Shown here: positions 39,801-58,158 of the stretch, piece by piece | Numbering within the stretch: position 1 is the first letter of the stretch | Layout: the number at the start of each line of letters is the position of its first letter | Source: a virus | Virus record (IMG/VR): IMGVR_UViG_3300034954_001540 | Coordinates: 1 to 64,000 of that record | DNA: 64,000 bases | Direction: 5' to 3' (one strand) | The notes under the pieces: model-generated | Told to the model about the DNA's origin: nothing | Seen by the model: only the letters and a program-made list of their open reading frames with translations | Databases searched by the model: none | Made by a program: the position numbers and the translations under genes

Positions 39801-42800
39801 CCGTAAGATGCTGGTAGTCTTTGACTACTTCTTGCATGAGTCTTCAGGTGACTATTTCTCCTCCCAGTCTTATACTGGTATCCTTTATAAGGAGATTCCA
39901 AAATATAAACTGGATGGATCGATTAACTACCTCCGTGACCAGATTGACTTCCGTCCTGGCATCGGTGAATTGGCATCTGGATCAGGTACGATTACTGCAC
40001 CTTTCTTTGTGAATTGTGCTTCGCTTGATTTTGGATCTAGACAGTTTGATACCTCTGGTGGTGTTGGTGGATCTACTATCTTCGATATTCCTAAGGTTAA
40101 CACAGAATTTAGATGTGACTACTGTTTCTATCTTCCTAGAGCAGACAAGTTGTATCTGACACACGACAATCAACTGAAGATTGTGAAGGGTGTGTCCTCC
40201 GAGGATCTTCCTCATCCTGATAAGATTGACAATGCGATGCTTCTCGCAACGATTGAGATGCGTCCTTATGTCTATGACGTTGAGCGTGATGTCCTGATCT
40301 ATCCTGAGATCATCCGTCGCTATACCATGAAGGACATTGGCGATCTGGAGACTAGACTCTCTCACGTTGAATACTATACTTCACTTTCTCTGCTGGAAGT
40401 ACAAGCAGACAATACTAAGACATACGATGACAACGGTTTCGACCGTCTGAAGAATGGTTATGTTGTGGATGACTTCACCGACCACACTGTTGGTGACGTG
40501 CTCAACATTGACTATAAGTGCTCTATGGACTTCAAAGAGGGTCACCTCCGTCCTTCGCACTACACTACTAACGTGCCTCTGCAGATCAACATGGCTGCAT
40601 CCAGCAACGTCGTTAAGACTGCTGGAAACATGGTGATGCTTCCTTATGAAGATCTTGCAGTTATCACACAACCTTATGCATCTAGGACTGAGAATGTTAA
40701 CCCATTCAACGTCTTTACCTTCATCGGTCGTATCGACCTAACACCTGCATCTGACGACTGGATTGATATTGAGCGTCTTCCTGCTCGTGTTGAAAACGTT
40801 GAAGGTGACTTCTCTGCTGTTGCTAGAGACCTTCAGATTGACCAGAATGGTTTTGCTCCTATCCAATGGGGTGGTTGGCAAACTAACTGGACTGGTGAAT
40901 CACTGCAGTCTACTTCTAGATTCTCTAACAGATCTGGTAGTTTCTCTGCTGGTGGTCGTAGACTCGGTAGATTGGGTCATGGTCAGGGTCGTCAGCCTCT
41001 CTTCTTGCATGAGAGACGCACCTATCGTGTTGTTAACAACCAAGCACGTCAAGGCGTGAGAACTCGCGTTACGCCCAAGATTGATAGAAAGTCTTTGGGT
41101 GATAGCATCCTGTCACAAACAGCAATCCCTTGGATTAGATCCAGAAATATCGGTTTCAACATTGACCGTCTTAAGCCTCGCACAAGAATGTATTTCTTCT
41201 TCGATGGCGTTAACGTGACTGGTTATGTGACACCTAAAGTTATTGAGCTTACTAAGTCTTCTACTTCTGATCCTAACTCCAACGAGACACCTTTCGTTGT
41301 TGGTGAGACCGTAGTGGGTCAGACCTCTGGCGCAAGACTTAAGGTTGCCGCTGCCAACGATGGTTATAAGACTGACCCTTATGGTGTTGGCGATGGTGCT
41401 CTTGCAGAATCTTATGCATCGCAGACTAGCTTCCTTAACATTGACATCACTGCAATGGCAGAGACAGTCAACCCTAACTTCTACGGTAACGTTAACGTGG
41501 GTGAAGTCCTTCTTGGACTGACCTCTGGTGCTCGTGCTGTTGTTAGAGATCGTCGTCTGCTGTCTGATAACATTGGTAACCTGCAGGGCACTCTATTCAT
41601 TCCTTCTCCTAAGAATGATTCTAACCCACGTTGGGCAACTGGCACAAGGACAGTTAGAGTTACGACTTCTGATGTGAATGATCGTACACCTGGCAACGTG
41701 GACTCCTCTGCTGATGCTACTTACTCGGCAAGCGGCACATTGCAGACAGTTAGAGAAAATATCCTTGCTGTCCGTAACGCTGAAATCGTCCGTGACACGG
41801 TTAACGATGAGAGGACTGTTATTACAACTAGGACTGAGCAACGTCAGATTGGTTGGTATGACCCTCTTGCACAATCCTTCATTGTTGACGAAGAAGGTGG
41901 TAGTTATCTGACTGGTGTTGATGTCTTCTTCAGGACTAAGGATGCCAACATTCCTATCTCTATTCAGATCAGGACCATGGAGAATGGTTATCCTACTAAG
42001 GATATTCTTCCTTTCTCTGATACTACTATCGATCCTGACACTGTTGAGTTGTCGGAAAACGCAAGTATTCCTACTAGATTTACATTCAGATCTCCTGTTT
42101 ATATTAAGTCAAACATTGAATATTGTTTCGTCCTTCTGTCTGACTCCAACGAATATAACGTTTGGATCTCCAGAATGGGTGACATCGATGTATCTGGCAC
42201 AAGGACTATCTCTGAGCAACCATATGCTGGTGTGCTCTTCAAGTCACAAAACGCATCTACATGGACTGCTGACCAGTATGAAGATTTGAAGTTTACCATG
42301 TATCGTGCTGAGTTTACTCAGAATCTGGGCACCGCGCTGTTTAACAACGCTGAGCTTGGTAAGGGTAACGGTGGTATTCACAGACTGATTGAGAATCCAA
42401 TCCAGACTCTGAAACCTAAGCAAACTCTCACACTCCCTGTTGGTGGTAACTATACATTCACAGTTGGTGCAAGAATCGTCCAGACACCTTCTGGTGCAGA
42501 AGGCACGATTACTGAATTCGATGCTGTGTCTGATCCTGAGACTATCACCATTACTGATATTGAAGGTATCTGGTCATCTGGTTTCTTGGATGCTAACAAT
42601 AATCCTTTCCAAGGTATCGCCTCATCTCAATCTGTCGCCACGATTGTATTGTCTGCAATCTTCAACGGCACCTTTGAGATTGGTGATGTGGTCAGTGGAT
42701 CTACATCTTCTGCAACTGGTGTTGTCACAGCATATGACGTTGGCACTCAGACTCTGACACTTAACTACATTACTAGAGCATTCGATGTTTCGGATACTCT

Positions 42801-44190
42801 GTCTGAGCCAGGCGGCACATCTGCAACGATTACCAGCATTAACTATAGCGGTGACTCCTACGACGCATATCCTACTGCTGCTCCTTCTTATCCTAATGAT
42901 GACAAGGAAGTGTTGGTTTATCACAGAAACCACGGTATGCACCAACGTAGTAACAACGTTGAGGTTGAGGGCATTATCTCTGAAGTGCCTCCTACCACAC
43001 TAACAACTACTTTGACTGCTGGCGCTACTTCGATTCAGGTCAACGATGCATCTCAATTCCACACCATTATTGGTGGTGCTCCTATCGGTAACCTCAATCA
43101 GGGTTATCTGATGATCGATGATGAGATCATTCAATACTCTGCAATCTCTGCTAACGGGCAGGTGATCACAGTTGCTACCTCTGGTAGAGGTAATAACGGC
43201 ACTGCTGATGTTGAGCACGCCTCTGGCGCAGTTGTGAAGTGTTACAACCTTGATGGTATTCCTCTAACAGAAATCAATAAGGTCCACACTAGCATCTCCT
43301 GCCCATGGTTGGATACCTACATGCTGCACATTGATCATGTTGCAACTAATGGTATTCGTGGCGGCGGCACAGATGTGTATGCTTCTCAGAATGTCCAGTT
43401 TGAAACCATCACACCTACTGTGTCTACGATGGTCTTACCTGACACTCAGATTAGTGCTCGCTTGAATACTACCACTGCTACATCTGTCGGAGACGGATCT
43501 ACTGTGGTTGATCAAAACTCTTTCATCAACAACGGCACTTATGTGGACATTGTGTTGAATGAGCAAAACCAGTTTACTGCTCCTCAGATGGTTGCATCTA
43601 AGATCAACGAGCAAAACAAACTGGATGGTAACAAGTCTCTTACCATGTCGATCATGCTTGAGACTGACAGGACAAACCTTTCTCCTGCTATTGACCTTGA
43701 CCGTGTGTCACTGATTACAACATCTAACCGCGTGAATATGTGGCCAGGTGGACAATCAACTTATGGTCAGCAATCTCAGATTGATAGAGATCAAGATGTT
43801 TCTACTCTTGCTATCGGTGATCAAAATGATGCTGTCTATATTACACGTCTCGCCCGCTTGGGTAGAGAAGCACGCTCACTGAAGATTGACTTCCAAGTCA
43901 CCCGTCACCCTGCTACCGAGCTTCGTATTTACTACAAGGCATTCAAGGTTGGCGACGCGACCGATCCTAATACTATTGGTTGGACACAAATGGGTCTACC
44001 CACTTCTAACCAAAACTTGGGTGAAGCATATGACACGACTCCTACAGAAGAGTATCTCTGGAAGGATTATACATATGAAGCAAGGGGACTTAACTTCAAC
44101 GCCTTCCAAGTGAAGATCGTGATGAGATCTAAGAATCAGGCTCGAGTACCACTTATAGCTGACTTAAGGTCTATTGCTCTTGCAACCTAA
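36883..44190 (+). CDS. VrlC-like (DUF4815-type) large virion structural protein
   Basis: MPQNTNLNIAPYFDDFD...FYRVLFRPG...QARELT, ARRTYEESGDY, DPLAQSF and LFKSQN are hallmarks of this cyanophage family. Confidence 0.85.
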   Translation: MPQNTNLNIAPYFDDFDKDKNFYRVLFRPGYPIQARELTTLQSILQNQIESIGQHFFKEGAMVIPGQVGYDLNVQAIILQQSFLGVDVETYRTQLHGQIVEGITTGVKAKVLYSISAAESERGYVTLYVKYIESGDTVSDTTIKGFQPNEQLLAENEITFGTTLIEIGSPFAQLLPVDSTAVASAAYINNGVYFIRGHFVDVQSANLILEQYSNNPSYRIGLEVSESIVTPEDDPSLNDNAAGTSNYSAPGGHRFKIKTSLVKKAINDSTDKNFVELLRINNSKVEQFVDSTAYSELEKSLARRTYEESGDYVIDTFSIKARECLDDGFNNGVYTPTQTTQQNNTPTDDLLTYEISPGRAYVKGYRTEFLTPQYVDAAKPRDFACVENGIIHFRLGNFVKVYDQYGWPNLTGEGVSDAYQVIELYDDWNTGVSNSVVGNQIGRARVVQIQIDQVNQYDMWFFDPQMFTAINFAAGNNSVSIGDVLRGRTSGARGFVADNGSGTHCKLEQVSGVFLNNEVIERDGRVIGTLEAAHTYNLSDVRRCLGRNSSNVVTFAANWLLNDNASIESSTVTLSGSGTLATGFRTKFAQDLRPGDVVTTTASGLNGSNTVRIKRVDPTLIATNTGNIATGGTPIFDYLNQTAIVDASLKKGTGNADGEYAEMVRMRPFIFQKDYQNGELSIDTPRTSMKSISDESFFVYRTFANKTVVSGGVTVSLPESEQFASLDNENYVLTIVAESGSSYSVGDNLDIDNLNDLGSLTVTFGADAQSITISGLTNVNTVKLTALISKNIVTRKIKTAAKMRALKVTRTRINNDQTKYGLAYGNLYGTRIEDEEISFALNDVYKIHAVYESEDDNDAESPYMVLSESTFFDNGSVVVGKTSGARGRVIQFVNATLRLYFVALNEIPFIPGETIDGVDDDGNPLQAIVDDSEGSVSKGSKVITTQFELESGQKAHFYDVCKLTRLPGFSPPIRKMLVVFDYFLHESSGDYFSSQSYTGILYKEIPKYKLDGSINYLRDQIDFRPGIGELASGSGTITAPFFVNCASLDFGSRQFDTSGGVGGSTIFDIPKVNTEFRCDYCFYLPRADKLYLTHDNQLKIVKGVSSEDLPHPDKIDNAMLLATIEMRPYVYDVERDVLIYPEIIRRYTMKDIGDLETRLSHVEYYTSLSLLEVQADNTKTYDDNGFDRLKNGYVVDDFTDHTVGDVLNIDYKCSMDFKEGHLRPSHYTTNVPLQINMAASSNVVKTAGNMVMLPYEDLAVITQPYASRTENVNPFNVFTFIGRIDLTPASDDWIDIERLPARVENVEGDFSAVARDLQIDQNGFAPIQWGGWQTNWTGESLQSTSRFSNRSGSFSAGGRRLGRLGHGQGRQPLFLHERRTYRVVNNQARQGVRTRVTPKIDRKSLGDSILSQTAIPWIRSRNIGFNIDRLKPRTRMYFFFDGVNVTGYVTPKVIELTKSSTSDPNSNETPFVVGETVVGQTSGARLKVAAANDGYKTDPYGVGDGALAESYASQTSFLNIDITAMAETVNPNFYGNVNVGEVLLGLTSGARAVVRDRRLLSDNIGNLQGTLFIPSPKNDSNPRWATGTRTVRVTTSDVNDRTPGNVDSSADATYSASGTLQTVRENILAVRNAEIVRDTVNDERTVITTRTEQRQIGWYDPLAQSFIVDEEGGSYLTGVDVFFRTKDANIPISIQIRTMENGYPTKDILPFSDTTIDPDTVELSENASIPTRFTFRSPVYIKSNIEYCFVLLSDSNEYNVWISRMGDIDVSGTRTISEQPYAGVLFKSQNASTWTADQYEDLKFTMYRAEFTQNLGTALFNNAELGKGNGGIHRLIENPIQTLKPKQTLTLPVGGNYTFTVGARIVQTPSGAEGTITEFDAVSDPETITITDIEGIWSSGFLDANNNPFQGIASSQSVATIVLSAIFNGTFEIGDVVSGSTSSATGVVTAYDVGTQTLTLNYITRAFDVSDTLSEPGGTSATITSINYSGDSYDAYPTAAPSYPNDDKEVLVYHRNHGMHQRSNNVEVEGIISEVPPTTLTTTLTAGATSIQVNDASQFHTIIGGAPIGNLNQGYLMIDDEIIQYSAISANGQVITVATSGRGNNGTADVEHASGAVVKCYNLDGIPLTEINKVHTSISCPWLDTYMLHIDHVATNGIRGGGTDVYASQNVQFETITPTVSTMVLPDTQISARLNTTTATSVGDGSTVVDQNSFINNGTYVDIVLNEQNQFTAPQMVASKINEQNKLDGNKSLTMSIMLETDRTNLSPAIDLDRVSLITTSNRVNMWPGGQSTYGQQSQIDRDQDVSTLAIGDQNDAVYITRLARLGREARSLKIDFQVTRHPATELRIYYKAFKVGDATDPNTIGWTQMGLPTSNQNLGEAYDTTPTEEYLWKDYTYEARGLNFNAFQVKIVMRSKNQARVPLIADLRSIALAT

Positions 44191-44807: not shown

Positions 44808-47800
44808 ATGGCAAATAGAATTCAATTAAGACGTGACGGTGCTCAGCAGTGGGCAAACGTCAACCCTATTCTCGCTCAAGGTGAGTTAGGTATCGAAATT
44901 GATACTTCGCGTATCAAGATCGGTGATGGCGTCACCGCATGGAACTCTCTGAAGTATGAGAGACCGATCGAGACCGAATCAAACACCGCTAACACGTTGG
45001 TGAAACGTGATGCTGACGGTAACTTTGAGGCGGGTGCGATTACTGCTTCGTTGGTGGGTAACGCTGCCACGGCAACACGACTGGCAAACGCAAGACAGAT
45101 CGCTCTGGGTGGCGACATGTCTGGTGCAGGTACTTTTGATGGATCCTCTAACCTCACCATTACTGCCGAATTGAATTATGTGGTGGCACTTCCCCACTAC
45201 GATGAGAATGACCTAGCAGCAACAGGACAGTATACCCGTATCACAGTTGACTCTCGTGGTCGTATTGTGGATGCTGATAACCCAACATCACTGGGTGCAT
45301 TCGGTATTACTGACGCACAACCTTTGGATACTGATCTAACCTCACTTGCTAACATGGCAGGTTTTGGTCTTATCTCTAGACAGTCTGAAGGCACACTGGT
45401 CAACCGCAGTATTACTGGTGGTAGTGGTCGTATCATTGTACAGAATGGTAACGCTCAGTCTTCCAACCCATTTATTGACTTAGCAGATACCACAGTTGTG
45501 GTGGGTAAGTATAATACCCTCAACTCAATGGATCCTCTGGTCAATCCTTTGATCAGTGCTACAACTGGTGAGCAGACTGTTAACACTGTCAACATTCAAG
45601 TTGACAGATATGGTCGTTTAGTTTATGCTAATACTTCCCCTATCGCTACAGCAACGGAGGGCGCGAAGTCTGGCACATCTTTCACCACTTACGATAACGC
45701 TACTGTCTATCCTAGATTTTCAAAGGTTATTGCTTCTAACGGTCGCTGCTACCAAGCGGCTATTAGGGATATCCCTGCAGGACTCGGAGAGCCATCACAT
45801 AACATCCAAAATGGTGATGCAGACGATCAAGGTGGATGGAGAGATCTGGGTACTGATGGCATCGAGCAAAAAGGTCTGGCGAGTTTCGACCAAGAAGACT
45901 TCGATGTAGATGCTAACGGTCATGTAACAATCGCTGCAAACGCTATTGAGAATTCTCAACTACAATCGTTGGGTCGTCTCATGTTTACTGACCAAAATGC
46001 TACGGAGACTTTTGAGCTTGACCCCGAAAGGACAACTGATAATGCTTATCATGGCATTACCAAGCTTAATCACATTAACATTAACAACAGAACTGGCGGT
46101 AGCGTATTCCGTATCGTTGGTTACGATACTTCTGAATATCCTTTCCAACCTGGCATTCTGGATCAGGGCAATTCCTATCCTGCTGTTAATGCTGACGACG
46201 CTAACGGTAACGGTAGTGCCACCAGTGGATCATCTCTCACTGGCGCTGTTGACATTAACCTCGACACTACCATCGCTGGTAACATTACTCTTGATGTTAC
46301 AAAAGCCGACCAGTTTATTAAGCGAACGTCGGGTAATCTAGAGATTGCTCTAGAAGTTAATGAAGCGAATAATCGCTCTATGGACATCAACGTCACCAAT
46401 GCTGGTGGTGGAGATGCGACTTTCAACCTGACTGCTGATCAGGACATCACAATCAACGTGACTGATGTTGACCACAGAGTCAACATTGAGGACTTCCATA
46501 TTCAGGATAACGTCCTCTCAACTACAAACTCCACGATGATCCTTGATCCCAATGATGACGATGATGCCACTGGCGTCGTCAGAGTCCGTGGTGATCTTAC
46601 TGTTGATGGCACAACCACAACAGTTAACTCAACTGTGGTGACTATCCAAGACCCCATCATGACGCTGGGTGGTGAGGATACTCTTACAACAGATGACAAT
46701 AAGGACCGTGGTATCGAATTTAGATACTATGATAGCCAAGAGAGATTTGGTTTCTATGGGTGGGACGAAGATTACGCGGACGCTAACATATGGTCTGGCA
46801 CTGGCGGGTATCGCTTCCTCTACAACGCGACTAACTCAAGCGAAGTTTATTCTGGCACTGACGCTCCTATCATTGCTGGTAACCTCCGACTAACTACAAA
46901 TACTTCTTCTACTTGGAAGACACCTACAACTGGCACCTTGGTGGTGACTGGTGGCACAGGTATCTCTGAGAATCTTAACGTCGGTGGCACGACTCACCTG
47001 AATGGTAACGTTGAGATTGATGGCACAGTTGACATCGATGCCAACTTCGCTGTTAGAAACAATACTACTGACAAGTTTACTATCGAGAGTGCAACTGGTA
47101 ACACAGTTATCGAAGGCACACTAGATATCCAACTTGAAACAGAGATTACAGATAACCTGATTATCTCTGCAGATAATAAAGAATTCATTATCCGCACTGC
47201 TGGTAATGTCAATAAGTTTACTGTTGATACTGATAACGGTAACACTGAAATTCAGGGCACAGTCCACGTCATCAATGCCGTTGACTTCGATTCAACTCTT
47301 AACGTTGATGACGATGTTACATTCAACGCCAACTTTGATCTGGATGGCACTGCGCTCTTCCATAACGATATTACTCTTGATACCACTGGTAAGTATTTCA
47401 CTATTACCAATGGCAGTAGTCAAACATTCCGAGTCCTAAGCACTAATGGAAACACTGACATCGAAGGTAGTCTTAATGTTGGTGGTGTCAACACTTTTGA
47501 GCGCACTAACAATATCACTGTTGCTACGACTGACTCAGACATCACTCTGAGCAGCGGCGGCAATGCCACCTTTGCTGGTGGTGTCAACATGGATAAGGAT
47601 CTCCGTGTTGGTGGTGACATCTATCTGGCAGACCGTCTGGTCGTCAAAGATGCTGGCACAGCACGCACACGTCCTTCTCTGCTCAACAACGTTGATGTCT
47701 TGTATCGCACCTATATGGGTGGTGGCACAGCACACAACGCATCCTTTGCAGATGATGCTGATGCTCAGTTGAGAGTTGCTGGTGGTGTTGGTATTGTCCA

Positions 47801-50800
47801 AGACCTGCATGTTGGCGATGACTTCTACATTGGCAAGGTCAACACTAACGACAACGTTGAATTCTCTGTCCTTGGCGAATCTGGTTTCACAACCATCGGT
47901 CGTGTGGGTCAGGGTAACGCTACTGATGGTGCTATCGTTGTCCACGGTTACGCTACATTCAACGAGAGATTTACAATCAATGGTCCTCTGACCACGATTG
48001 GTGATTCTGCTACTGATGTGTTGACAGTCAACGCTGTCTCTACATTCACCGATAACGTTACTATCAATGGTGACTTCGACATCGATGGCAATGCCATTAT
48101 CGAAGGTAACTTGACAGTTAACGGAGTTACGACTACAGTAAATAGCACAGTAATGACGCTGGATGATCCTGTCATTACTTTAGGTGGGGACACTGCTCCT
48201 ACCCAGTCGGATGCTAAAGATCGTGGTATCGAATTCCGATACTACGATTCGACTGCCCGTGTTGGTTTCTTCGGTTGGGATAACTCCGCTTCGCGTTACG
48301 CTCTTTACCATAATGCAACCAACTCTAGTGAAGCATTCAGCGGCACAAGATCGGGTCTTGACGCTGGCTCACTTAAATTATTTGATACAACAAATGCAAC
48401 CAACTCTTCTTCTGGTACTCTCATCGTTGGCGGTGGCGCTGGTATCGGTCTTGATCTTTATGTTGGGGACGATCTTATCGTTACCGACAATGGCTCCTTC
48501 GGGGGTAACGTTGGGATCACTGGCACATTGGATGTTGCCGATGACTTCGCAGTTGCCTCTACATTTACTGTAGATGCACAGACTGGTAATACATTTGCTA
48601 ATGGCACATTTACTGTCAACGGCAACTCTATAATTGGTAACCAGTCCTCTGACTCCCACACAGTAAACGGCACAGTCCAGTTTAACGAAGCAGTTACTGG
48701 TGCTGCAAGATTCAACATTCGCGATCTTAAGATCGGCACAGATGCTGCTAACGAGATTGGCACTACTTCTGGTAACCTGATTCTCGATTCTGCTGGTGGC
48801 ACTGTCAACATCACAGATAATGCTGACGTAGACGGTAACCTCAATGTTGATGGCAATACACAGATTGATGGCACGCTCACGGTCGATGGCAACGCAACTA
48901 TCGGTAATGCTGCTGGGGATGCTCACAGCGTCACGGGTACTGTCCAATTCAACCAAGCGATTACTTCCACCGACATCACGGCGGATAACATCAAGATCGG
49001 CGTTGATGGTGCGACCGAAATCTCCACCACAGCGGGAGATCTAATTCTCGATTCTGCTGAAGGTAAAGTCCACATCACAGATAATGCTGAGATTGATGGA
49101 GCACTTACAGTTGATGGAAACACTCAACTTGGTGACTCTTCTGGCGACACTCTGACAGTTAACGCTACATCTACATTTAATGCTGCAATCACCTCCACAG
49201 ACATCACTGCTGACTCTGTAAGAATTGGTGTTGCTGCTTCTAACGAGATTGATACCTCCGCTGGTAACCTTGTCCTTGACTCTGCTGGTGGCACAGTCAA
49301 CATTACTGACGATGCTACAGTCAGCGGCACTCTGGTAGTTAGCAATCAGGCAACTATCAATGATACTCTGCTTGTAGATGCTACCAATGAAAACTTTGTC
49401 ATCAGATCTTCTCTGGTTGATAGATTCACTGTTGATACTGACAATGGTAACACCTTCATTGCTGGCACAACTCAGATCGAAGGTCTGACAACCATCAATG
49501 ATAATCTTGACCTCAACGGTAACATCGATGTATCTGGCACGTCTCAGTTTGGTGGTCGTGCAGAATTCAACGGCATCGTTGATATTGATAATAATTTTGC
49601 AGTCCGCTCTGGCACTACTGATAAGTTTACTATTGAGAATGCCTCTGGTAATTTCTCCACTGCTGGTAACGGTAGTATCACAGGCACTCTGGCAGTTACA
49701 AACACTGCTGCCTTTGCTGAGAAGGTCACACTCAGTGCTAATGAAACCGCTAACCGTCTAACTGCTAACGCAGCATTGATGGTCCCCAACGGTGGTATCG
49801 CAGTTTATGAAGATTCTTACTTCGGTGAGGATGTATTCATCGGACCTGACCAGAATGAAACCATCACCCTCTTCGGTGCTACAGGTAATATCACTGCAGA
49901 TGGCACAATCACCTCTGCCACAATGGTTGCTACTACAGCAAACATTGCTACCGTCAACACGACTTCTAACGTCAACGTTGGTGGATCGATTCTTGTTAAC
50001 ACTAACAAGTTTATTGTCCAAGGATCTACAGGTAACGTTACTGTTGCTGGCACCCTAGATGTTGCAGGCAGGACTATCATCGATGATACCCTGAATGTTA
50101 CTCAGAATGTTGACTTCGATGCTGACTTGAATGTTGATGGTAATCAGCAACTGGACGGCACACTGACTGTTGACAGCACCTCACTGTTTAAGGACAGCAT
50201 GGTCCTCCGTGGTGCTACTAAGACACTCAAGTTGCAGAATGGTAGCGGCACTGACAAGATCACCCTGCACTCCACATCTGGTAATGCAGAGATCACAGGC
50301 ACCTCTACTCTGGGCACTCTGGCAGTCACCAACAACACCACTATCGGTGGCACACTAGGCGTTACAGGACAGATCACTGGTGATATTACTGGTGACCTGA
50401 CAGGTACTGCAGACAAGGCAAATCTGGTTGATGTTACTGAAACTGGATCTTCTAACCTTACTTACTATCCTGTCTTTGTTTCTGCTAACACAGGTCACAC
50501 TGAAATCAGGACTGACTCTCAGCAACTCCAGTACAATCCATACGAAAACAGACTTACTGTTACTAACTTCAGATCAACCACTGACTTTGAAGTCCAAGGT
50601 AACTTGAATGTTACTGGTGCTTTGACATTCATGCAGTCACAGGTTGGTAGTATTGCTAACCATGATACTGACGCTCTGTCAGAAGGCACTACTAATCTCT
50701 ACTTCACTAACGAGAGAGTTGATGATCGTGTTGCTGCACTAATCGATGGCGGCACAGGTATTTCGGCAACGTATAATGATGCTGGTAACCTTCTGTCTCT

Positions 50801-51812
50801 TGCTGTTGACTTCGGTGAGATCAACACTGACAATCTGACTGAGGGCAGCACCAATAGATTCCATACTCAAGCGAGGGTCAGAAATGCGTTTACTTATGGC
50901 ACTGGTATACAGCACGACGGCAGTGGCGGTCTTTCAGTTACTCAGTCGGATATCAATACTGATAACGTCACAGAAGGATCAACCAACATCTTCTTTACTA
51001 ACGCCCGCACTCGTGGTGCATTGTCTGTTAGTGGCGACCTCGGTTACAATGCTTCTACTGGTGTCTTCTCCTTCACCGAGCGCACTGATGCTGAGGTAAA
51101 TGGACTTGCTGATGCTCGTATTGCACTGAATGTTGGCACAAACCTTGACCTGAGCAATCAGGATACTGGTGACCTTGCAGAGGGCACAAACCTCTACTAC
51201 ACCAACGCTCGTGCTGATGCTCGCATTGCACTTCAAGTTGGTGCAAACCTTGATATTAGCAACCAGTCCACAAGCGACCTGTCTGAGGGCACTAACCTCT
51301 ACTTTACTAACGCTCGTGCTGATGCTAGAGCAGATGCAAGAATTGCTGCTTCAGATACGAATAATCTTAGTGAAGGATCTAATAACCTTTACTACACCGA
51401 TGCTCGTGCTGACGCTCGTATTGCTAATGCTGCAGGTAACTATGCAACTGCTGCACAAGGCACGCTGGCAGATTCCGCTACACAACCAGGAGATCTGGCA
51501 ACTGTAGCAACCAGCGGATCTTACAATGATCTGTCTAACTTGCCTACGCTCTTCTCTGGAGCATATGCTGACCTGACTGGTAAACCTACATTATTCTCTG
51601 GTGCTTATGCTGACCTGACTGGCAAACCTACATTGGGCACTGCCGCTGCTACTGACAGCACTGCATATGCAACTGCTGCACAAGGCACACAGGCAAACAC
51701 CAATGATACTGACATTGATGATCTCTACACCGCTCTCAATGCGATCGGTAATGATGCTTCTATCACCAATATGACTCAACTCAAGGCTGCTCTTGCCGCT
51801 CTCACTCGCTGA
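44808..51812 (+). CDS. long tail-fibre-like protein (2334 aa)
   Basis: N-terminal RIQLRRD...W...NPILAQGELGIE-x-DT...KIGDG...W (Mtd/hyaluronidase-type N-terminus). Long G-x-L-x-V-x-G beta repeats, with EGTNLY(F/Y)T and YADLTGKP repeats at the C-terminus. Confidence 0.8.
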   Translation: MANRIQLRRDGAQQWANVNPILAQGELGIEIDTSRIKIGDGVTAWNSLKYERPIETESNTANTLVKRDADGNFEAGAITASLVGNAATATRLANARQIALGGDMSGAGTFDGSSNLTITAELNYVVALPHYDENDLAATGQYTRITVDSRGRIVDADNPTSLGAFGITDAQPLDTDLTSLANMAGFGLISRQSEGTLVNRSITGGSGRIIVQNGNAQSSNPFIDLADTTVVVGKYNTLNSMDPLVNPLISATTGEQTVNTVNIQVDRYGRLVYANTSPIATATEGAKSGTSFTTYDNATVYPRFSKVIASNGRCYQAAIRDIPAGLGEPSHNIQNGDADDQGGWRDLGTDGIEQKGLASFDQEDFDVDANGHVTIAANAIENSQLQSLGRLMFTDQNATETFELDPERTTDNAYHGITKLNHININNRTGGSVFRIVGYDTSEYPFQPGILDQGNSYPAVNADDANGNGSATSGSSLTGAVDINLDTTIAGNITLDVTKADQFIKRTSGNLEIALEVNEANNRSMDINVTNAGGGDATFNLTADQDITINVTDVDHRVNIEDFHIQDNVLSTTNSTMILDPNDDDDATGVVRVRGDLTVDGTTTTVNSTVVTIQDPIMTLGGEDTLTTDDNKDRGIEFRYYDSQERFGFYGWDEDYADANIWSGTGGYRFLYNATNSSEVYSGTDAPIIAGNLRLTTNTSSTWKTPTTGTLVVTGGTGISENLNVGGTTHLNGNVEIDGTVDIDANFAVRNNTTDKFTIESATGNTVIEGTLDIQLETEITDNLIISADNKEFIIRTAGNVNKFTVDTDNGNTEIQGTVHVINAVDFDSTLNVDDDVTFNANFDLDGTALFHNDITLDTTGKYFTITNGSSQTFRVLSTNGNTDIEGSLNVGGVNTFERTNNITVATTDSDITLSSGGNATFAGGVNMDKDLRVGGDIYLADRLVVKDAGTARTRPSLLNNVDVLYRTYMGGGTAHNASFADDADAQLRVAGGVGIVQDLHVGDDFYIGKVNTNDNVEFSVLGESGFTTIGRVGQGNATDGAIVVHGYATFNERFTINGPLTTIGDSATDVLTVNAVSTFTDNVTINGDFDIDGNAIIEGNLTVNGVTTTVNSTVMTLDDPVITLGGDTAPTQSDAKDRGIEFRYYDSTARVGFFGWDNSASRYALYHNATNSSEAFSGTRSGLDAGSLKLFDTTNATNSSSGTLIVGGGAGIGLDLYVGDDLIVTDNGSFGGNVGITGTLDVADDFAVASTFTVDAQTGNTFANGTFTVNGNSIIGNQSSDSHTVNGTVQFNEAVTGAARFNIRDLKIGTDAANEIGTTSGNLILDSAGGTVNITDNADVDGNLNVDGNTQIDGTLTVDGNATIGNAAGDAHSVTGTVQFNQAITSTDITADNIKIGVDGATEISTTAGDLILDSAEGKVHITDNAEIDGALTVDGNTQLGDSSGDTLTVNATSTFNAAITSTDITADSVRIGVAASNEIDTSAGNLVLDSAGGTVNITDDATVSGTLVVSNQATINDTLLVDATNENFVIRSSLVDRFTVDTDNGNTFIAGTTQIEGLTTINDNLDLNGNIDVSGTSQFGGRAEFNGIVDIDNNFAVRSGTTDKFTIENASGNFSTAGNGSITGTLAVTNTAAFAEKVTLSANETANRLTANAALMVPNGGIAVYEDSYFGEDVFIGPDQNETITLFGATGNITADGTITSATMVATTANIATVNTTSNVNVGGSILVNTNKFIVQGSTGNVTVAGTLDVAGRTIIDDTLNVTQNVDFDADLNVDGNQQLDGTLTVDSTSLFKDSMVLRGATKTLKLQNGSGTDKITLHSTSGNAEITGTSTLGTLAVTNNTTIGGTLGVTGQITGDITGDLTGTADKANLVDVTETGSSNLTYYPVFVSANTGHTEIRTDSQQLQYNPYENRLTVTNFRSTTDFEVQGNLNVTGALTFMQSQVGSIANHDTDALSEGTTNLYFTNERVDDRVAALIDGGTGISATYNDAGNLLSLAVDFGEINTDNLTEGSTNRFHTQARVRNAFTYGTGIQHDGSGGLSVTQSDINTDNVTEGSTNIFFTNARTRGALSVSGDLGYNASTGVFSFTERTDAEVNGLADARIALNVGTNLDLSNQDTGDLAEGTNLYYTNARADARIALQVGANLDISNQSTSDLSEGTNLYFTNARADARADARIAASDTNNLSEGSNNLYYTDARADARIANAAGNYATAAQGTLADSATQPGDLATVATSGSYNDLSNLPTLFSGAYADLTGKPTLFSGAYADLTGKPTLGTAAATDSTAYATAAQGTQANTNDTDIDDLYTALNAIGNDASITNMTQLKAALAALTR
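51552..51635 (+). repeat. 42-bp tandem duplication (FSGAYADLTGKPTL x2) in the fibre C-terminus
   Basis: Units start at 51552 and 51594 and differ only at synonymous sites. Confidence 0.9.
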
Positions 51813-53505: not shown

Positions 53506-54302
53506 TGCTAGGCACTTACACATATCACGAAATTATTAGAAAGACAGTTGTCGGATTCGGCACACTGTTTAATAACATCGAGCTTCGTCGCACAAAGGGA
53601 TCGAAGACTGAAGTTATGAAGGTGCCTCTGGCATACGGTCCCAAGCAGAAATTCTTGGCACGTCTCCGCCAAGTCGGTGATCTGACTACACAAGATCAGG
53701 CACAGATCACACTTCCTAGAATCTCCTTTGAGATTCAGGGTATCTCGTATGATCCTACTAGGAAGTTGTCTCCCATCTCTGCTATCAGAAACACTAAGTC
53801 TGATGGTAACGAGGCAAAGTCTTTCATGCCTGTGCCATATAACGTGAATTTTGAATTGGCAATTCTGGCAAAGAATCAGGATGACTCTCTACAAATTCTG
53901 GAGCAGATTCTTCCTTATTTCCAACCCAGTTTTAATCTCACCATGAATCTGATTCCAGATCTGGGTGAGAAGAGAGACTACCCAGTGACCCTTACGTCAG
54001 TGGATTACAGTGATGAATATGAGGGTGACTATGACACACGTCGCACACTTGTATATACGCTGCAATTCGTTGCTAAGACCTACCTGTACGGTCCTGTAAA
54101 CGACGCAACAGGCGAAGTCATCAAGAAAGTCCAAGTGGACTATTCAACCGAGGTAGATCGCACAGCACCTCGCGAAGTGCGCTACACGGTCCAACCAGAT
54201 CCTCTTACTGCGGATCCTACAGACGATTTCGGATTCAACGAGTTTACATCAGTCTTCGTTGATTCTAAAGATTATAACCCAGTCACAGGACAAGATGAAT
54301 AA
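53505..54302 (+). CDS. g15: tail sheath stabiliser/completion protein gp15
   Basis: YHEIIRK-x-VVGFGTLFNNI, VPLAYGPKQKFLARL, LPRISFE and QILEQILPYFQP. Confidence 0.95.
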   Translation: MLGTYTYHEIIRKTVVGFGTLFNNIELRRTKGSKTEVMKVPLAYGPKQKFLARLRQVGDLTTQDQAQITLPRISFEIQGISYDPTRKLSPISAIRNTKSDGNEAKSFMPVPYNVNFELAILAKNQDDSLQILEQILPYFQPSFNLTMNLIPDLGEKRDYPVTLTSVDYSDEYEGDYDTRRTLVYTLQFVAKTYLYGPVNDATGEVIKKVQVDYSTEVDRTAPREVRYTVQPDPLTADPTDDFGFNEFTSVFVDSKDYNPVTGQDE

Positions 54303-54711
54303 TTTTGAAGGTATCGAAGACGCTCTTGATGTTGCTAGTGATATCGTCCCAGCATCAAAACCTGCACCTCCAGTGCCAGTAGAAGAGTTTGCTTCCACAA
54401 AGGAGCAACTCAAGAAAGATTATGAATACACAAGAGGCAACCTATACTCTCTCATTGAGAAAGGACAGGAAGCAGTTGACGGTATCCTTGATCTTGCTCA
54501 ACAGTCTGATCAACCAAGAGCATTTGAAGTTGCTGGTCAGTTGATCAAACACGTTGGTGATGTAGCAGACAAACTCGTAGATCTTCAAAAGAAAGTTAAC
54601 GAGATTGAAAATCCCAAAAAGTCCAAAGAAGTTAATACCACAAACAATACTATGTTTGTAGGTAGCACAGCAGATCTCGCTAAGTTTCTAAAACAACAAC
54701 GCGATAAATAG
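54295..54711 (+). CDS. g16: terminase small subunit gp16
   Basis: ATG at 54295. DYEYTRGNLYSLIEKGQEA, PRAFEVAGQLIK and FVGSTADL. Confidence 0.93.
   Translation: MNNFEGIEDALDVASDIVPASKPAPPVPVEEFASTKEQLKKDYEYTRGNLYSLIEKGQEAVDGILDLAQQSDQPRAFEVAGQLIKHVGDVADKLVDLQKKVNEIENPKKSKEVNTTNNTMFVGSTADLAKFLKQQRDK
54704..54710 (+). promoter_or_regulatory. putative late promoter (ATAAATA)
   Basis: At the gp16 stop, upstream of AGGAG and the ATG at 54736. Confidence 0.65.
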
Positions 54712-54735: not shown

Positions 54736-55269
54736 ATGTCAGTATTAAATGTCCTTGACACCCAAACTATTTCAGGAAGTGGCACTGGCTACGTCGTAGT
54801 GAAATCGGGTGTTGTCCGCTGCTATGCAGCATCCGCGTCTTCGATTCAATTTGACGCTGGTCCTGCGATCACTTTGGCAGCAGGTGAAGCATTGCTCCTC
54901 TCCGTGGGTAAAGCAAAGAATGCATCTATCAGTGCAGGCACAAACGCTGCTACTAGCGTGTTGACCGTATTGGGTGGTGGCACCCCCGCACACAGGTTTG
55001 TCGTTGGCGATTATATTCAGACCGCTGCAAATGGAGACACCGCTTTTACGAGTGATTTTGTTTCTGCAGCATCTGCTGGTAAGAAGGTAACTGCTGTTTC
55101 CGATACCACTATCACCACCGATATTGATGCGTCTGGTGCAGGAGGTAACTATGCATTATCTGAAGCCGATGTCATTGCTGGGACCGTCCCAGTATTGCAG
55201 CGAGCAGTCAAACTCACCGCTGGATCTGCCGACGTTGTTGTCGAGCAAGTCCAAGTCGTCGGAGGATGA
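54736..55269 (+). CDS. hypothetical beta-rich protein, probably virion-associated
   Basis: 177 aa, Ala/Gly/Ser/Thr/Val-rich, with a late-promoter motif upstream. Confidence 0.7.
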   Translation: MSVLNVLDTQTISGSGTGYVVVKSGVVRCYAASASSIQFDAGPAITLAAGEALLLSVGKAKNASISAGTNAATSVLTVLGGGTPAHRFVVGDYIQTAANGDTAFTSDFVSAASAGKKVTAVSDTTITTDIDASGAGGNYALSEADVIAGTVPVLQRAVKLTAGSADVVVEQVQVVGG

Positions 55270-55272
55270 CGA

Positions 55273-57567
55273 ATGCCAGCAGTCTCAAGAGCCCAACAAA
55301 GATTCTTCGGGATGGTTAGAGCGGCTCAAAAGGGGGATCTCAAATCGCCGTCGCCACAGGTTCAAAGAACTGCTGCCAGCATAAAGAAAAAGGATGCTAA
55401 GGATTTTGCATCCACCAAACATAAAGGTTTACCAGAGAAAAAAATGAAATCTTTTTCCGAAATGCAACACATCCCTGAAGAGGGATATGATCACTGGCGT
55501 GATAAGCAACTTGAGAAGTATGGCTCAGGTTATAGATCTGCAGGTAGTCGCCGCAGTGTTGCAAGGTCTGGTGGGACGCAACCAAAACCCATGCCTAAGA
55601 AGAAAGAGGGTGGTGACTCTGCTCTTGACTATGTGAAGAAGTCCATCGAAGCAAAGTATGGCAAGGGTGCCATCATGGATACTTCTAAGAAAAAGAATGA
55701 AGAGGTTGTAACTGAGAAGAAGAAAGGTCTCTGGGACAACATTCACGCTAAGAGAAAGCGTGGTGAGAAACCTGCTAAGCCTGGTGATAAAGATTATCCT
55801 AAGACTCTCAACGTCGAAGGTTATGATAAACCAGACGAGAAGTTGAAGACTGATCGGGATATGTTTAACATCCCTAAGGAAAAGCAGAATGCTGCAAAGG
55901 AGCGTCTTCTCGCTAAAGCAAAAGCAAAGCGTGCAAAACTGAAAGAAGATGTTTGGGATCAGGTTGACATCTTTGCAGAGATGAATGACTGGGAGATCTC
56001 ACTCCTTAATGATACTATTATCGAAGATATCATTACTGATGTCTTCATCGAAGAATTACAAGAAGGTAGAGATATTGATAGCGTCACAGATATGCTCTGT
56101 GAGTCTGTTGATTACTCTCTTAATCTCTTGACAGAAGTATCAGATAAGTATTATGATAGTGCTGTTGCTTCTTCTAAAGCAGCAAGCAGGACTCCTGAAG
56201 TAAAGGCTGCTAACCGCAGACAAAAACTTGAAAAGGTTAAGAGTGCTGCTAAGAAGGTTGGATCTGCACTGAAGTCTGGTCTTAAGACTGGCGCTAAACT
56301 TGCACGCAAAGGTGCTGTTAAGGGTGCTGAAGTTGCTGGTAAGGCAGCAGGTCACGCGAAAAATCTCGCGAAAGACATGGGTAGTGCCGCTAAGAAAGGT
56401 TACCAGTCCACTCAAAAGGACTCATCTTCTAGCGACTCTGATTCCTCCTCTTCTTCTTCCTCATCTTCATCCTCCTCTTCTTCTAGCGAGTCCAAGCCTA
56501 AGAAGCCTGGTCTGCTCAGCAGAATTGGTAGCAAACTGAAGCGTGGTATCAAGAAGGCAGTTGGTGCTGGTGCAAGAGCTCTCTCCCGTGGCGCACGCAA
56601 TGTTGCACGCCGTCTGGGTGAAGAGACTCTCCTAGAGAAAGGAATGTCCGAGAAGGATATGGATTCTGCTCTTAAGGGTCACAAGTACAGTAAGAAGCAA
56701 CTCATGGACATGAGTAAGAAGTCTACTAAAGAAGGTAGACACGGTGAAGCACAGTCCATGTATAAGGCTGCCCGTGCCATGAAGGAAGACACCATCAATG
56801 AGCGTGGTGATTTCTGGCATCCTGATCCTGAGAAGGATCGTAAACTGGGTGGTCCTGGCGCTAACCAGCGTGCTCGTGAAGATCGTGCTGCTGCATCTAA
56901 ACCTGCTGCTAAGAAGGAAGATCCTAAGAAACTGCGTAAGGGTGAGTCCTACATGGACTATGCCAAGCGTCAGCCAGGTTACAAAGCACCCGCTAAGAAA
57001 GAAGGTTTGCGTGACAAGATCAAGCGTAAGCTTGGTTTGAAGAGAGAGGAAGTCGAAGTCCTTTCTTTCAATGCATATCTCTCAGAGGGTAACCGCACTG
57101 GTCGTATGATGCAGAAGTCCAAGACTCAGGTCACTGGACACATCTCTGCTGACAGGGGGTCCGACGAAAAAAAGAATCGTGAGGGTCGTAAGTCTCTAGA
57201 GAAGGATCTCAAGAAGCATGGCATCGGTCACAAGAAAGGTGTCGGTGAGTATAAGTATGACAGTGGAGAAACTGGCCGAGAAGTTTCCTATCAGACTTCA
57301 AAACCTGATAAGATGTCAAAACGCCGTTTCGGAAAGGTCATGCGTCGCATGGGACGCAAGCACGGGCAAGAATCCGTGATCACTAAAGACAAAGACAAAC
57401 CTGCAAAATTGCATTATACTGAGAAAGGTAGTAAAGCAAAATCCGATAGTATCGGAAAGACTAAGGCAGGTAAGCATCCCGAAGGTTATGGTGAAACTTC
57501 TGGCACCAAAGTCAGAGGTGGTAAGCTTCCCAAGAAAACTAACAAATCATCTTATCATTATGGCTGA
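55273..57567 (+). CDS. Lys-rich modular protein, putative capsid-internal polyprotein with C-terminal SAM-lyase-like domain
   Basis: 764 aa. Short modules are separated by hydrophobic-x-E sites, and there is a poly-Ser tract. The last about 160 aa carry SADR, G-x-Y, E-x-S and QESV motifs. Confidence 0.6.
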   Translation: MPAVSRAQQRFFGMVRAAQKGDLKSPSPQVQRTAASIKKKDAKDFASTKHKGLPEKKMKSFSEMQHIPEEGYDHWRDKQLEKYGSGYRSAGSRRSVARSGGTQPKPMPKKKEGGDSALDYVKKSIEAKYGKGAIMDTSKKKNEEVVTEKKKGLWDNIHAKRKRGEKPAKPGDKDYPKTLNVEGYDKPDEKLKTDRDMFNIPKEKQNAAKERLLAKAKAKRAKLKEDVWDQVDIFAEMNDWEISLLNDTIIEDIITDVFIEELQEGRDIDSVTDMLCESVDYSLNLLTEVSDKYYDSAVASSKAASRTPEVKAANRRQKLEKVKSAAKKVGSALKSGLKTGAKLARKGAVKGAEVAGKAAGHAKNLAKDMGSAAKKGYQSTQKDSSSSDSDSSSSSSSSSSSSSSSESKPKKPGLLSRIGSKLKRGIKKAVGAGARALSRGARNVARRLGEETLLEKGMSEKDMDSALKGHKYSKKQLMDMSKKSTKEGRHGEAQSMYKAARAMKEDTINERGDFWHPDPEKDRKLGGPGANQRAREDRAAASKPAAKKEDPKKLRKGESYMDYAKRQPGYKAPAKKEGLRDKIKRKLGLKREEVEVLSFNAYLSEGNRTGRMMQKSKTQVTGHISADRGSDEKKNREGRKSLEKDLKKHGIGHKKGVGEYKYDSGETGREVSYQTSKPDKMSKRRFGKVMRRMGRKHGQESVITKDKDKPAKLHYTEKGSKAKSDSIGKTKAGKHPEGYGETSGTKVRGGKLPKKTNKSSYHYG
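56419..56487 (+). repeat. poly-serine (TCN-rich) low-complexity tract
   Basis: Encodes DSSSSDSDSSSSSSSSSSSSSSS with mixed TCT/TCC/TCA codons. Confidence 0.9.
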
Positions 57568-57688
57568 AGAAAAACGCAAGTGTAAGTATTGTGGCATCAC
57601 TGCCCCTCTTGGGCATCACCGTCCTACCACATGGATGGAGAAGCACGAGTTGAATTGTGCCAGAAACCCTAAGAATAAAGAAGAATGA
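57560..57688 (+). CDS. small zinc-finger-like protein (42 aa)
   Basis: CKYC...HELNC pattern. Overlaps both neighbours. Confidence 0.6.
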   Translation: MAEEKRKCKYCGITAPLGHHRPTTWMEKHELNCARNPKNKEE

Positions 57689-58158
57689 AATCCTTTTCCC
57701 AATTCGTAGCAGAGCAAGACAACGTAGATGAAGCCGTTGGTCTAGCAATCGCGAGAGCGATTGATAAGACTAATCCCCCATTGGGTAGACCTTCTAGACG
57801 TAGAGATCTTTCTCATGCTCTGAAGATGAGGGAGGTGCTTAAAGGTGCCAAGAAGAGGAAGGATGATAAGAAAAAATCTCCTGTTAATTTCATGCAGGAT
57901 AAGAAAGAAACAAATGAAGACTGGCAGAAAAAGTCAGGCAAAAACCCTGAAGGCGGATTAAATGAAAAAGGTAGAAAGTCGTATGAGCGTGAAAACCCAG
58001 GAAGCGATCTTAAGGCACCTTCAAAAAAAGTTGGGAACCCTCGTAGAGCGAGCTTTTGTGCGCGAATGAAAGGGATGAAGAGGAAACTCACATCTAAGAA
58101 GACAGCGAGCGATCCTGATAGTAGAATTAACAAATCACTTAGAGCTTGGAATTGTTGA
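57685..58158 (+). CDS. DUF6321-like basic protein with MKSF-type leader
   Basis: WQKKSGKNPEGGLNEKGRKSY...GSDLKAP...RRASFCARM...SLRAWNC. Confidence 0.75.
   Translation: MKSFSQFVAEQDNVDEAVGLAIARAIDKTNPPLGRPSRRRDLSHALKMREVLKGAKKRKDDKKKSPVNFMQDKKETNEDWQKKSGKNPEGGLNEKGRKSYERENPGSDLKAPSKKVGNPRRASFCARMKGMKRKLTSKKTASDPDSRINKSLRAWNC

Follow-up and report, generated by a model that had tools for sequence, protein, structure and literature searches.

The window described here is a stretch of viral DNA 64,000 nucleotides long (IMG/VR virus record IMGVR_UViG_3300034954_001540, positions 1 to 64,000), and the element in question is the C-terminal end of a 764-residue protein encoded near its end. From sequence and model comparison, residues 606-764 are a genuine S-adenosylmethionine (SAM) lyase domain of the T3 type that is under strong selection, and catalysis is predicted. 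By analogy with T4-like relatives, the virion probably carries the enzyme and delivers it together with the DNA. The proposed scheme is one of late synthesis, a cut after Glu605 by a gp21-type protease, packaging of the released lyase, ejection, cleavage of SAM and a benefit against host defences. As a whole it is given a probability of about 0.6. The window comes from an 80.9-kb IMG/VR contig of a T4-like marine cyanomyovirus (Kyanoviridae), estimated to be 45% complete. The three central features are as follows (an arrow marks the presumed cut).

55273..57567, + strand: open reading frame (ORF) of the 764-amino-acid mosaic protein, very basic, with an isoelectric point (pI) of 9.9; phrog_26015, E 8e-160.
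57058..57087, + strand: internal leader resembling a capsid-targeting sequence and ending in a gp21-type cut site, VLSFNAYLSE↓G, residues 596-605.
57088..57564, + strand: SAM lyase domain, residues 606-764; predicted mature product 17.7 kDa, pI 10.2.

The domain lies directly behind ...AYLSE and consists of 159 residues, GNRTGR...SSYHYG, followed by a stop codon (translation of 57088-57567). An earlier reading of the letters, here called the original prediction, had pointed to the strings TGHISADRG, KNREGRKSLEKDL, GVGEYKYDSGETGREVSY, MGRKHGQESVIT and AKLHY as resembling phage SAM lyases. Every one of them is present in the translated domain, and the resemblance is not a matter of chance, since Pfam, profile, Foldseek and structural alignment agree. 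The Pfam family PF23780 (S-AdoMet_lyase) matches the domain with E 1e-7 (32.4 bits, cut-off 28). A search of 1.84 billion representatives found 111 relatives, 34 of which make up profile A1. This profile matches the T3 SAMase 7ock_L (E 2.6e-7) and Svi3-3 6zm9 (E 3e-3), and otherwise nothing credible. The profile is needed for the match; a single-sequence phmmer search of the domain against the PDB gave chance matches to G-proteins only.

The structural model leads to the same family. An AlphaFold (AF2) model of the domain has a predicted local distance difference test score (pLDDT) of 86 and contains the ferredoxin-like alpha/beta fold of the solved SAM lyases. The Foldseek search of residues 606-764 that the original prediction had proposed places SAM lyases at ranks 1-7 in the PDB. 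When the model is aligned to the T3 SAM lyase (7ock_J, 8bb1_E) with VIA-align, Z is 13.2 and the root-mean-square deviation 3.0 A over 132 residues (model positions 9-159), with 12-14% identity in the structural alignment. Svi3-3 has Z 8.1, and the first unrelated fold has Z 7.3.

Gly56, Glu69 and Gln104 (Svi3-3 numbering) are the sole strictly conserved residues of active SAMases (Guo et al., PMC7877911). In Svi3-3 the site is completed by Tyr58 and Glu105, and the change E69Q/A lowers activity 1500- to 4500-fold (PMC7877911). Alignment of the domain to Svi3-3 and T3 gives these equivalents:

57244..57252, + strand: Gly53-Glu54-Tyr55 of the domain, equivalent to Svi3-3 Gly56 and Tyr58.
57280..57282, + strand: Glu65 of the domain, equivalent to Svi3-3 Glu69.
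57367..57372, + strand: Gln94-Glu95 of the domain, equivalent to Svi3-3 Gln104-Glu105.

The codons singled out beforehand as catalytic, Tyr55 (57250-57252), Glu65 (57280-57282) and Glu95 (57370-57372), were chosen correctly and match substrate-binding residues. All five substrate-binding residues are kept in the window domain, and because of this catalysis on SAM is expected. In the 34-sequence profile the invariant columns are exactly G53, E65 and Q94. Y55 is found in at least 90% of the sequences, and E95 stands directly after Q94. The substrate-binding set is still kept in sequences down to 21% identity.

Selection on the domain is strong. Compared with phage S-WAM1, its ratio of nonsynonymous to synonymous substitution rates (dN/dS) is 0.03, at a dS of ~1.4. 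Among the 120 clusters (90% identity) listed, the domain is 94-100% identical, and the total protein lengths run from 420 to 947 amino acids. In the size class of 420-1337 amino acids alone, 716 protein clusters (90% identity) carry the domain. One explanation that does without catalysis is that the SAM lyase fold has been kept as an idle, very basic internal head protein serving in DNA packing or charge neutralisation. The domain has the charge for such a role, with a pI of 10.2 and 43 Lys+Arg in 159 residues, and T4 IPII and IPIII are similar (pI 9.3-9.5). This is nevertheless very improbable given the low dN/dS, the three strict residues that are invariant throughout the profile, and the retained Tyr and the Glu after Gln.

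The evidence for packaging begins with the ten residues in front of the domain. The internal proteins IPI, IPII and IPIII of phage T4 bear a capsid targeting sequence (CTS), are processed by the protease gp21 and are injected; IPI* blocks GmrSD restriction. The T4 record shows MKTYQEFIAE↓A at the start of IPII and IPIII, and MKTFKEF...ITE↓A at that of IPI. In IPIII the CTS is made up of the first ten residues, of which positions 4 and 7 serve targeting and positions 8 and 10 processing, and gp21 cuts after L/I-x-E (PMC9026906). The leader of the window protein, VLSFNAYLSE, has aromatic residues at 4 and 7, Leu at 8 and Glu at 10, the arrangement of T4 MKTYQEFIAE.

Homologues carry closer versions of this leader at the same boundary. 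They read KTYKEFIAE↓GNRTGR, KTYREFIAE↓G, KSFKQFLDE↓G and KTFAQFLEE↓G, compared with LSFNAYLSE↓G in the window. Taking all 76 distinct upstream contexts, [ILMV]-x-E is found at the boundary in 73 and the strict T4-CTS-like pattern in 60. The original prediction had described YLSE↓G as a site resembling those of prohead proteases. The conserved boundary bears this out, and the site is more than an L-x-E, being a diverged copy of the CTS of T4 internal proteins. In stand-alone homologues the leader is N-terminal, with beginnings such as MKTFQEF. Examples are P-SSM2_114 (MRTFQEFLQLCE↓GG), Paraglaciecola phage GD1 gp48 (MKTFSEFLGE↓SG), S-CREM2 ORF6 (MKDFDSFLEE), Microcystis phage Mel-JY01 (MQFKQYILGE↓SS) and Campylobacter phage CP220 (MKFKDY...FNE↓SS).

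A protease of the appropriate type is encoded on the same contig, beyond the end of the window:

72320-72796 of the contig: Peptidase_S77 (gp21-type) protease gene; PF03420, E 1e-34.

A Peptidase_S77 gene is also found in 4/4 other carriers tested. The gp23 maturation site of the contig is VTE↓A, aligned with LTE↓A of T4.

Further evidence comes from the virions of relatives. The SAM lyase domain corresponds to the cyanophage gene cluster T4-GC110. The N-terminal modules of the 764-residue protein, together with the DUF6321 tail encoded by the next gene, correspond to T4-GC119, and the gene before it encodes a DUF7243 protein, T4-GC403. In S-SM1 virions, T4-GC119 was found with 13 counts and T4-GC403 (the DUF7243 orthologue) with 60 peptide counts (Sullivan et al. 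2010, PMC3037559 Table S8). S-CREM2 ORF6 matches PF23780 with E 2e-19 and is 38% identical to the window domain; mass spectrometry of virions recovered 19 of its peptides, a coverage of 26% (PMC10665884, Front Microbiol 2023). Its authors proposed that this “SAM hydrolase” enters with the DNA and protects against restriction (PMC10665884). By this comparison, S-CREM2 ORF6, T4-GC119 and T4-GC403 would support packaging of the window domain only indirectly. That a T4-like cyanophage carries a SAM hydrolase in its virion is an idea in print since 2023, for the S-CREM2 homologue (PMC10665884). The explanation by CTS and gp21 appears not yet to be in print for a cyanophage SAM hydrolase; a full-text search for “capsid targeting” with “cyanophage” gave a T4 review only.

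The late timing in the scheme is suggested by the genes and signals upstream:

54259..54711, + strand: small terminase subunit (T4 gp16 homologue); Pfam PF11053, E 8e-6; phrog_445, E 4e-55.
54704..54710, + strand: ATAAATA, a putative late-promoter-like site that overlaps the gp16 stop, 32 nucleotides upstream of the DUF7243 start.
54736..55269, + strand: DUF7243 protein (T4-GC403), first gene of the presumed late unit; Pfam PF23891, E 3e-53.

The g16-g17 variable region begins with the small terminase gene, which the original prediction had rightly placed upstream. The 764-residue protein's gene begins 4 nucleotides past the stop of the DUF7243 gene. ATAAATA resembles the T4 late promoter TATAAAT (PMC3037559) and is found six times in the window (5660, 5770, 8353, 35313, 44760 and 54704), always on the + strand. 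The copies are candidate late promoters, situated 31-180 nucleotides upstream of the structural gene starts 5838, 8421, 35344, 44808 and 54736. No copy of the exact T4 late promoter TATAAATA is present in the window, where only the 7-mer variant ATAAATA occurs. Between 54711 and 57567, no terminator-like sites were found on the + strand. Judged by these signals, the ATAAATA and the absence of an intervening terminator-like site fit a two-gene unit that would be transcribed late. Inside the ORF, ~930 nucleotides upstream of the domain, there is also a near-consensus sigma-70-type promoter, TTGACA-18-TATGAT (11/12), at 56128-56157 on the + strand. This promoter might permit separate, possibly early, transcription of the 3' part.

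The proposed mechanism can now be given in full. Expression of the 764-residue protein would be late and driven by the promoter-like ATAAATA upstream of the DUF7243 gene. The product, a very basic polyprotein akin to T4-GC119 (itself a virion protein), would pass into the core of the prohead. There, a gp21-type prohead protease would cut after Glu605 (L-S-E↓G), at the end of the internal CTS copy. The cut would free a T3-type SAM lyase of 17.7 kDa and pI 10.2, which would remain in the head with the DNA and be ejected with it into the next host cell. The enzyme would then convert SAM to methylthioadenosine and homoserine lactone, ahead of any phage gene expression. The likeliest benefit would be a weakening of SAM-dependent defences, such as type I/III restriction or bacteriophage exclusion (BREX). 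What the sequence and the model show directly is the homology, the fold, the active-site residues, the purifying selection, the conserved CTS/L-x-E boundary, the protease gene and the late-promoter-like motif. Late timing, cleavage, packaging, ejection, catalysis and target are all inferred, and the anti-defence target is the weakest and least certain step.

Several observations weigh against this scheme. The PF23780 score is barely over the threshold for the subfamily to which the window domain belongs. The strict CTS pattern is found at two sites only in the 80.9-kb contig, the domain boundary and residue 3 of the next gene, and this count is not significant (2 observed vs 0.70 expected, P = 0.16). 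The argument from the CTS is thus taken to rest on position and conservation, not on a genome-wide count. The leader is internal (residues 596-605 of 764), whereas the leaders of T4 internal proteins are N-terminal and the T4 experiments established targeting for an N-terminal leader. The N-terminal part of the window protein may therefore govern targeting instead. T4-GC110 is absent from S-SM1, S-PM2 and Syn9, the three phages with proteomes, and for this reason the proteomes of Sullivan et al. 2010 are silent on it. Phage SAM lyases of this family are homo-oligomers whose active site is formed between subunits. A folded oligomer would also have to dissociate or unfold to exit through the tail.

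An internal leader, with virion proteomes silent on T4-GC110, would also fit a SAM lyase that is active but unpackaged. In that case, the leader-like motif would be a mere linker, and the enzyme would act only in the producing cell, late in infection. There it might recycle SAM, or stand in the way of SAM-dependent methylation or of superinfecting phages, and the g16-g17 region does also carry the metabolic genes petE, talC, PTOX, gnd and zwf. A mere linker would hardly account for a boundary motif that homologues conserve, some of them in a form almost matching the T4 CTS, or for the N-terminal position of the leader in stand-alone homologues. Action confined to the producing cell also conflicts with the presence of S-CREM2 ORF6 in virions and with the neighbours T4-GC403 and T4-GC119 being virion proteins. 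This explanation is judged unlikely.

The remaining points against the scheme concern its benefit. Synechococcus WH8102 is without a recognisable defence system (PMC11726456). In WH5701, knockouts of type I restriction-modification or of Gabija still improved infection by P-TIM40 somewhat (PMC11726456), and P-TIM40 itself carries a domain that is 94% identical. Many cyanomyoviruses lack the gene, which is therefore accessory; its cultured carriers include P-SSM4, P-SSM2, P-TIM40, S-TIM4, S-SSM5 and S-WAM1. Hosts without recognisable defence systems would be easier to understand if the enzyme were packaged and injected for a purpose other than anti-restriction. Its main role could be to shut down the SAM metabolism of the host by binding and inhibiting the SAM synthetase MetK, as T3 SAMase does, or to degrade a SAM-derived signal such as SAM-AMP. 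The model is far closer to the T3 SAM lyase, which was solved with MetK (Z 13.2; 7ock, 8bb1), than to Svi3-3 (Z 8.1), and the SAM-AMP lyase 9gad is among the fold matches. Such a role is improbable as the main one, given that all SAM-binding residues are kept and that catalysis on SAM is expected.

Known systems resemble the window protein in part. T3 SAMase is a free early protein. The T3 SAM lyase (gene 0.3; 7OCK, 8BB1) and Svi3-3 (6ZM9, 6ZNB) share with the window domain the PF23780 family, the fold and the Gly/Tyr/Glu/Gln-Glu set. In contrast to T3 SAMase, the window domain forms the C-terminal part of a presumably late protein of 764 residues, stands behind a putative head-targeting leader and is much more basic. 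The T4 internal proteins are alike in having an L/I-x-E leader, a gp21-type protease in the genome, and a basic cargo that varies behind a conserved leader. They differ in that the window cargo is an enzyme of a known family and its leader is internal, at a polyprotein junction. The SAM lyase domain is thus likened to an internal protein for its presumed working and is not classed as one, because its leader is found at residues 596-605 and not at the N-terminus.

S-CREM2 ORF6 likewise belongs to a T4-like cyanophage and has both PF23780 and a leader. Its domain is N-terminal with a 250-residue C-terminal extension, and its gene is found among DNA-metabolism genes. As far as a full-text search of the paper reaches, neither a capsid targeting sequence nor gp21 processing is mentioned there (PMC10665884). 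T4-GC110 (P-SSM2_114, P-SSM4_093) and T4-GC119 (S-SM1_115, Syn9 gp114) are both annotated as hypothetical (Sullivan et al. 2010). In the window they are fused.

This fusion suggests how the gene arose. The N-terminal 605 residues of the protein are a mosaic, in which residues ~489-596 match Syn9 gp114 and a WHPDP-type block is also present in S-SM1_115. In S-SM1_115 and Syn9 gp114, both members of T4-GC119, the chain runs on through the leader-like LSFQDFQE and LTFQQFQE, respectively, to a C-terminal DUF6321 tail. In the window, this tail belongs to a separate gene downstream:

57685..58158, + strand: next gene, 157 amino acids, with N-terminal CTS-like MKSFSQFVAE (strict CTS pattern at residue 3) and DUF6321 tail; Pfam PF19846, E 8.5e-24.

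The comparison thus suggests that a gene of the GC119 type was split into two ORFs when a SAM lyase cassette entered it. Other arrangements exist. T4-GC110 and T4-GC119 are adjacent genes in the opposite order in P-RSM4 and S-SSM5, and in P-SSM4 the domain is situated after a short N-terminal piece and MYYQDFIKLVE↓G.

The fusion of N-terminal part and domain is real and exists in independent samples. Four metatranscriptome runs, from three studies, yielded contigs that cover the gene and bridge both the junction with the DUF7243 gene and the junction between N-terminal part and domain, the latter being spanned by RNA-library contigs from two studies. Such contigs show presence and bridging of junctions, not transcript start, strand or timing, and DNA carry-over is possible. 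RNA-library contigs of two runs join 55944 to 56785, skipping 840 nucleotides, and one contig has 147 other letters in place of 56974-57083. These differences look like natural length variants of the N-terminal part that keep the SAM lyase, matching the 420-947 amino acid range of homologues. The AF2 model of residues 560-764, across the junction, is poor (mean pLDDT 62.6); in it FNAYLSE forms a short helix of low confidence. The labels phrog_764 “cytidyltransferase” and phrog_2226 “methyltransferase” are presumed to be annotation carry-over.

A small ORF is found between the two parts of the apparently split gene:

57560-57688, + strand: micro-ORF, 42 amino acids, MAEEKRKCKYCG...H...C, C2HC-like; S-WAM1 annotates a coding sequence of the same length (129 nucleotides) in the same place.

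The micro-ORF shares letters with both neighbours: its ATG with the stop of the 764-residue protein's gene (ATGGCTGA), and its TGA with the start codon of the following one (ATGA). These overlaps suggest translational coupling of the three genes.

The large genes of the window are all on the + strand. Their order in this region is gp13-gp15 (neck and tail-sheath-stabiliser homologues, assigned by position), gp16, DUF7243, the 764-residue ORF, the micro-ORF and the DUF6321 protein, followed by the metabolic genes named above. Synechococcus phage S-WAM1 is the closest isolate, with ~84% nucleotide identity across the 3' third of the 764-residue protein's gene. Giant ORFs are also present, at 8421-30308 (+ strand, 7295 amino acids, among structural genes), 36883-44190 (2435 amino acids) and 44808-51812 (2334 amino acids). 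The phage zwf has a 79% identical copy on NZVD01000078.1, a 24-kb contig of a metagenome-assembled genome labelled Rhodopirellula sp.; this is probably a cyanophage contig mis-binned in a planctomycete genome.

Stand-alone homologues of the GD1 gp48 type are found in Campylobacter T4-like phages, a Microcystis phage and Prevotella Lak megaphages. Those of CP220 and Mel-JY01 have an N-terminal leader ending x-x-E↓SSL(S/A)R, and the combination of leader and SAM lyase therefore extends well past cyanophages. A tentative generalisation, somewhat less probable than its opposite, is that the T4 CTS acts as a portable address label. It would load interchangeable enzyme cargo into the heads of T4-like phages of cyanobacteria, Paraglaciecola, Alishewanella, Campylobacter and Microcystis. 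In cyanophages the cargoes would be strung into one gp21-cut polyprotein, with the SAM lyase as a swappable cassette. If this is true, searching for the leader would be a general route to injected counter-defence enzymes.

The practical weight of the finding is limited, as the idea is partly published. T4-GC110, listed as hypothetical in the annotation of P-SSM2, P-SSM4, P-RSM4, P-SSM7 and S-SSM5, thereby gains a predicted function. The leader would also provide a mechanistic explanation for the SAM hydrolase in S-CREM2 virions. The SAM lyases known so far are anti-restriction proteins expressed early in infection. Restriction strikes before transcription begins, and an enzyme that arrives fully made with the DNA would be at work in that same period. 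The common leader ties the T4 internal-protein system to abundant ocean phages, and it suggests a sequence rule by which other injected effectors may be recognised.

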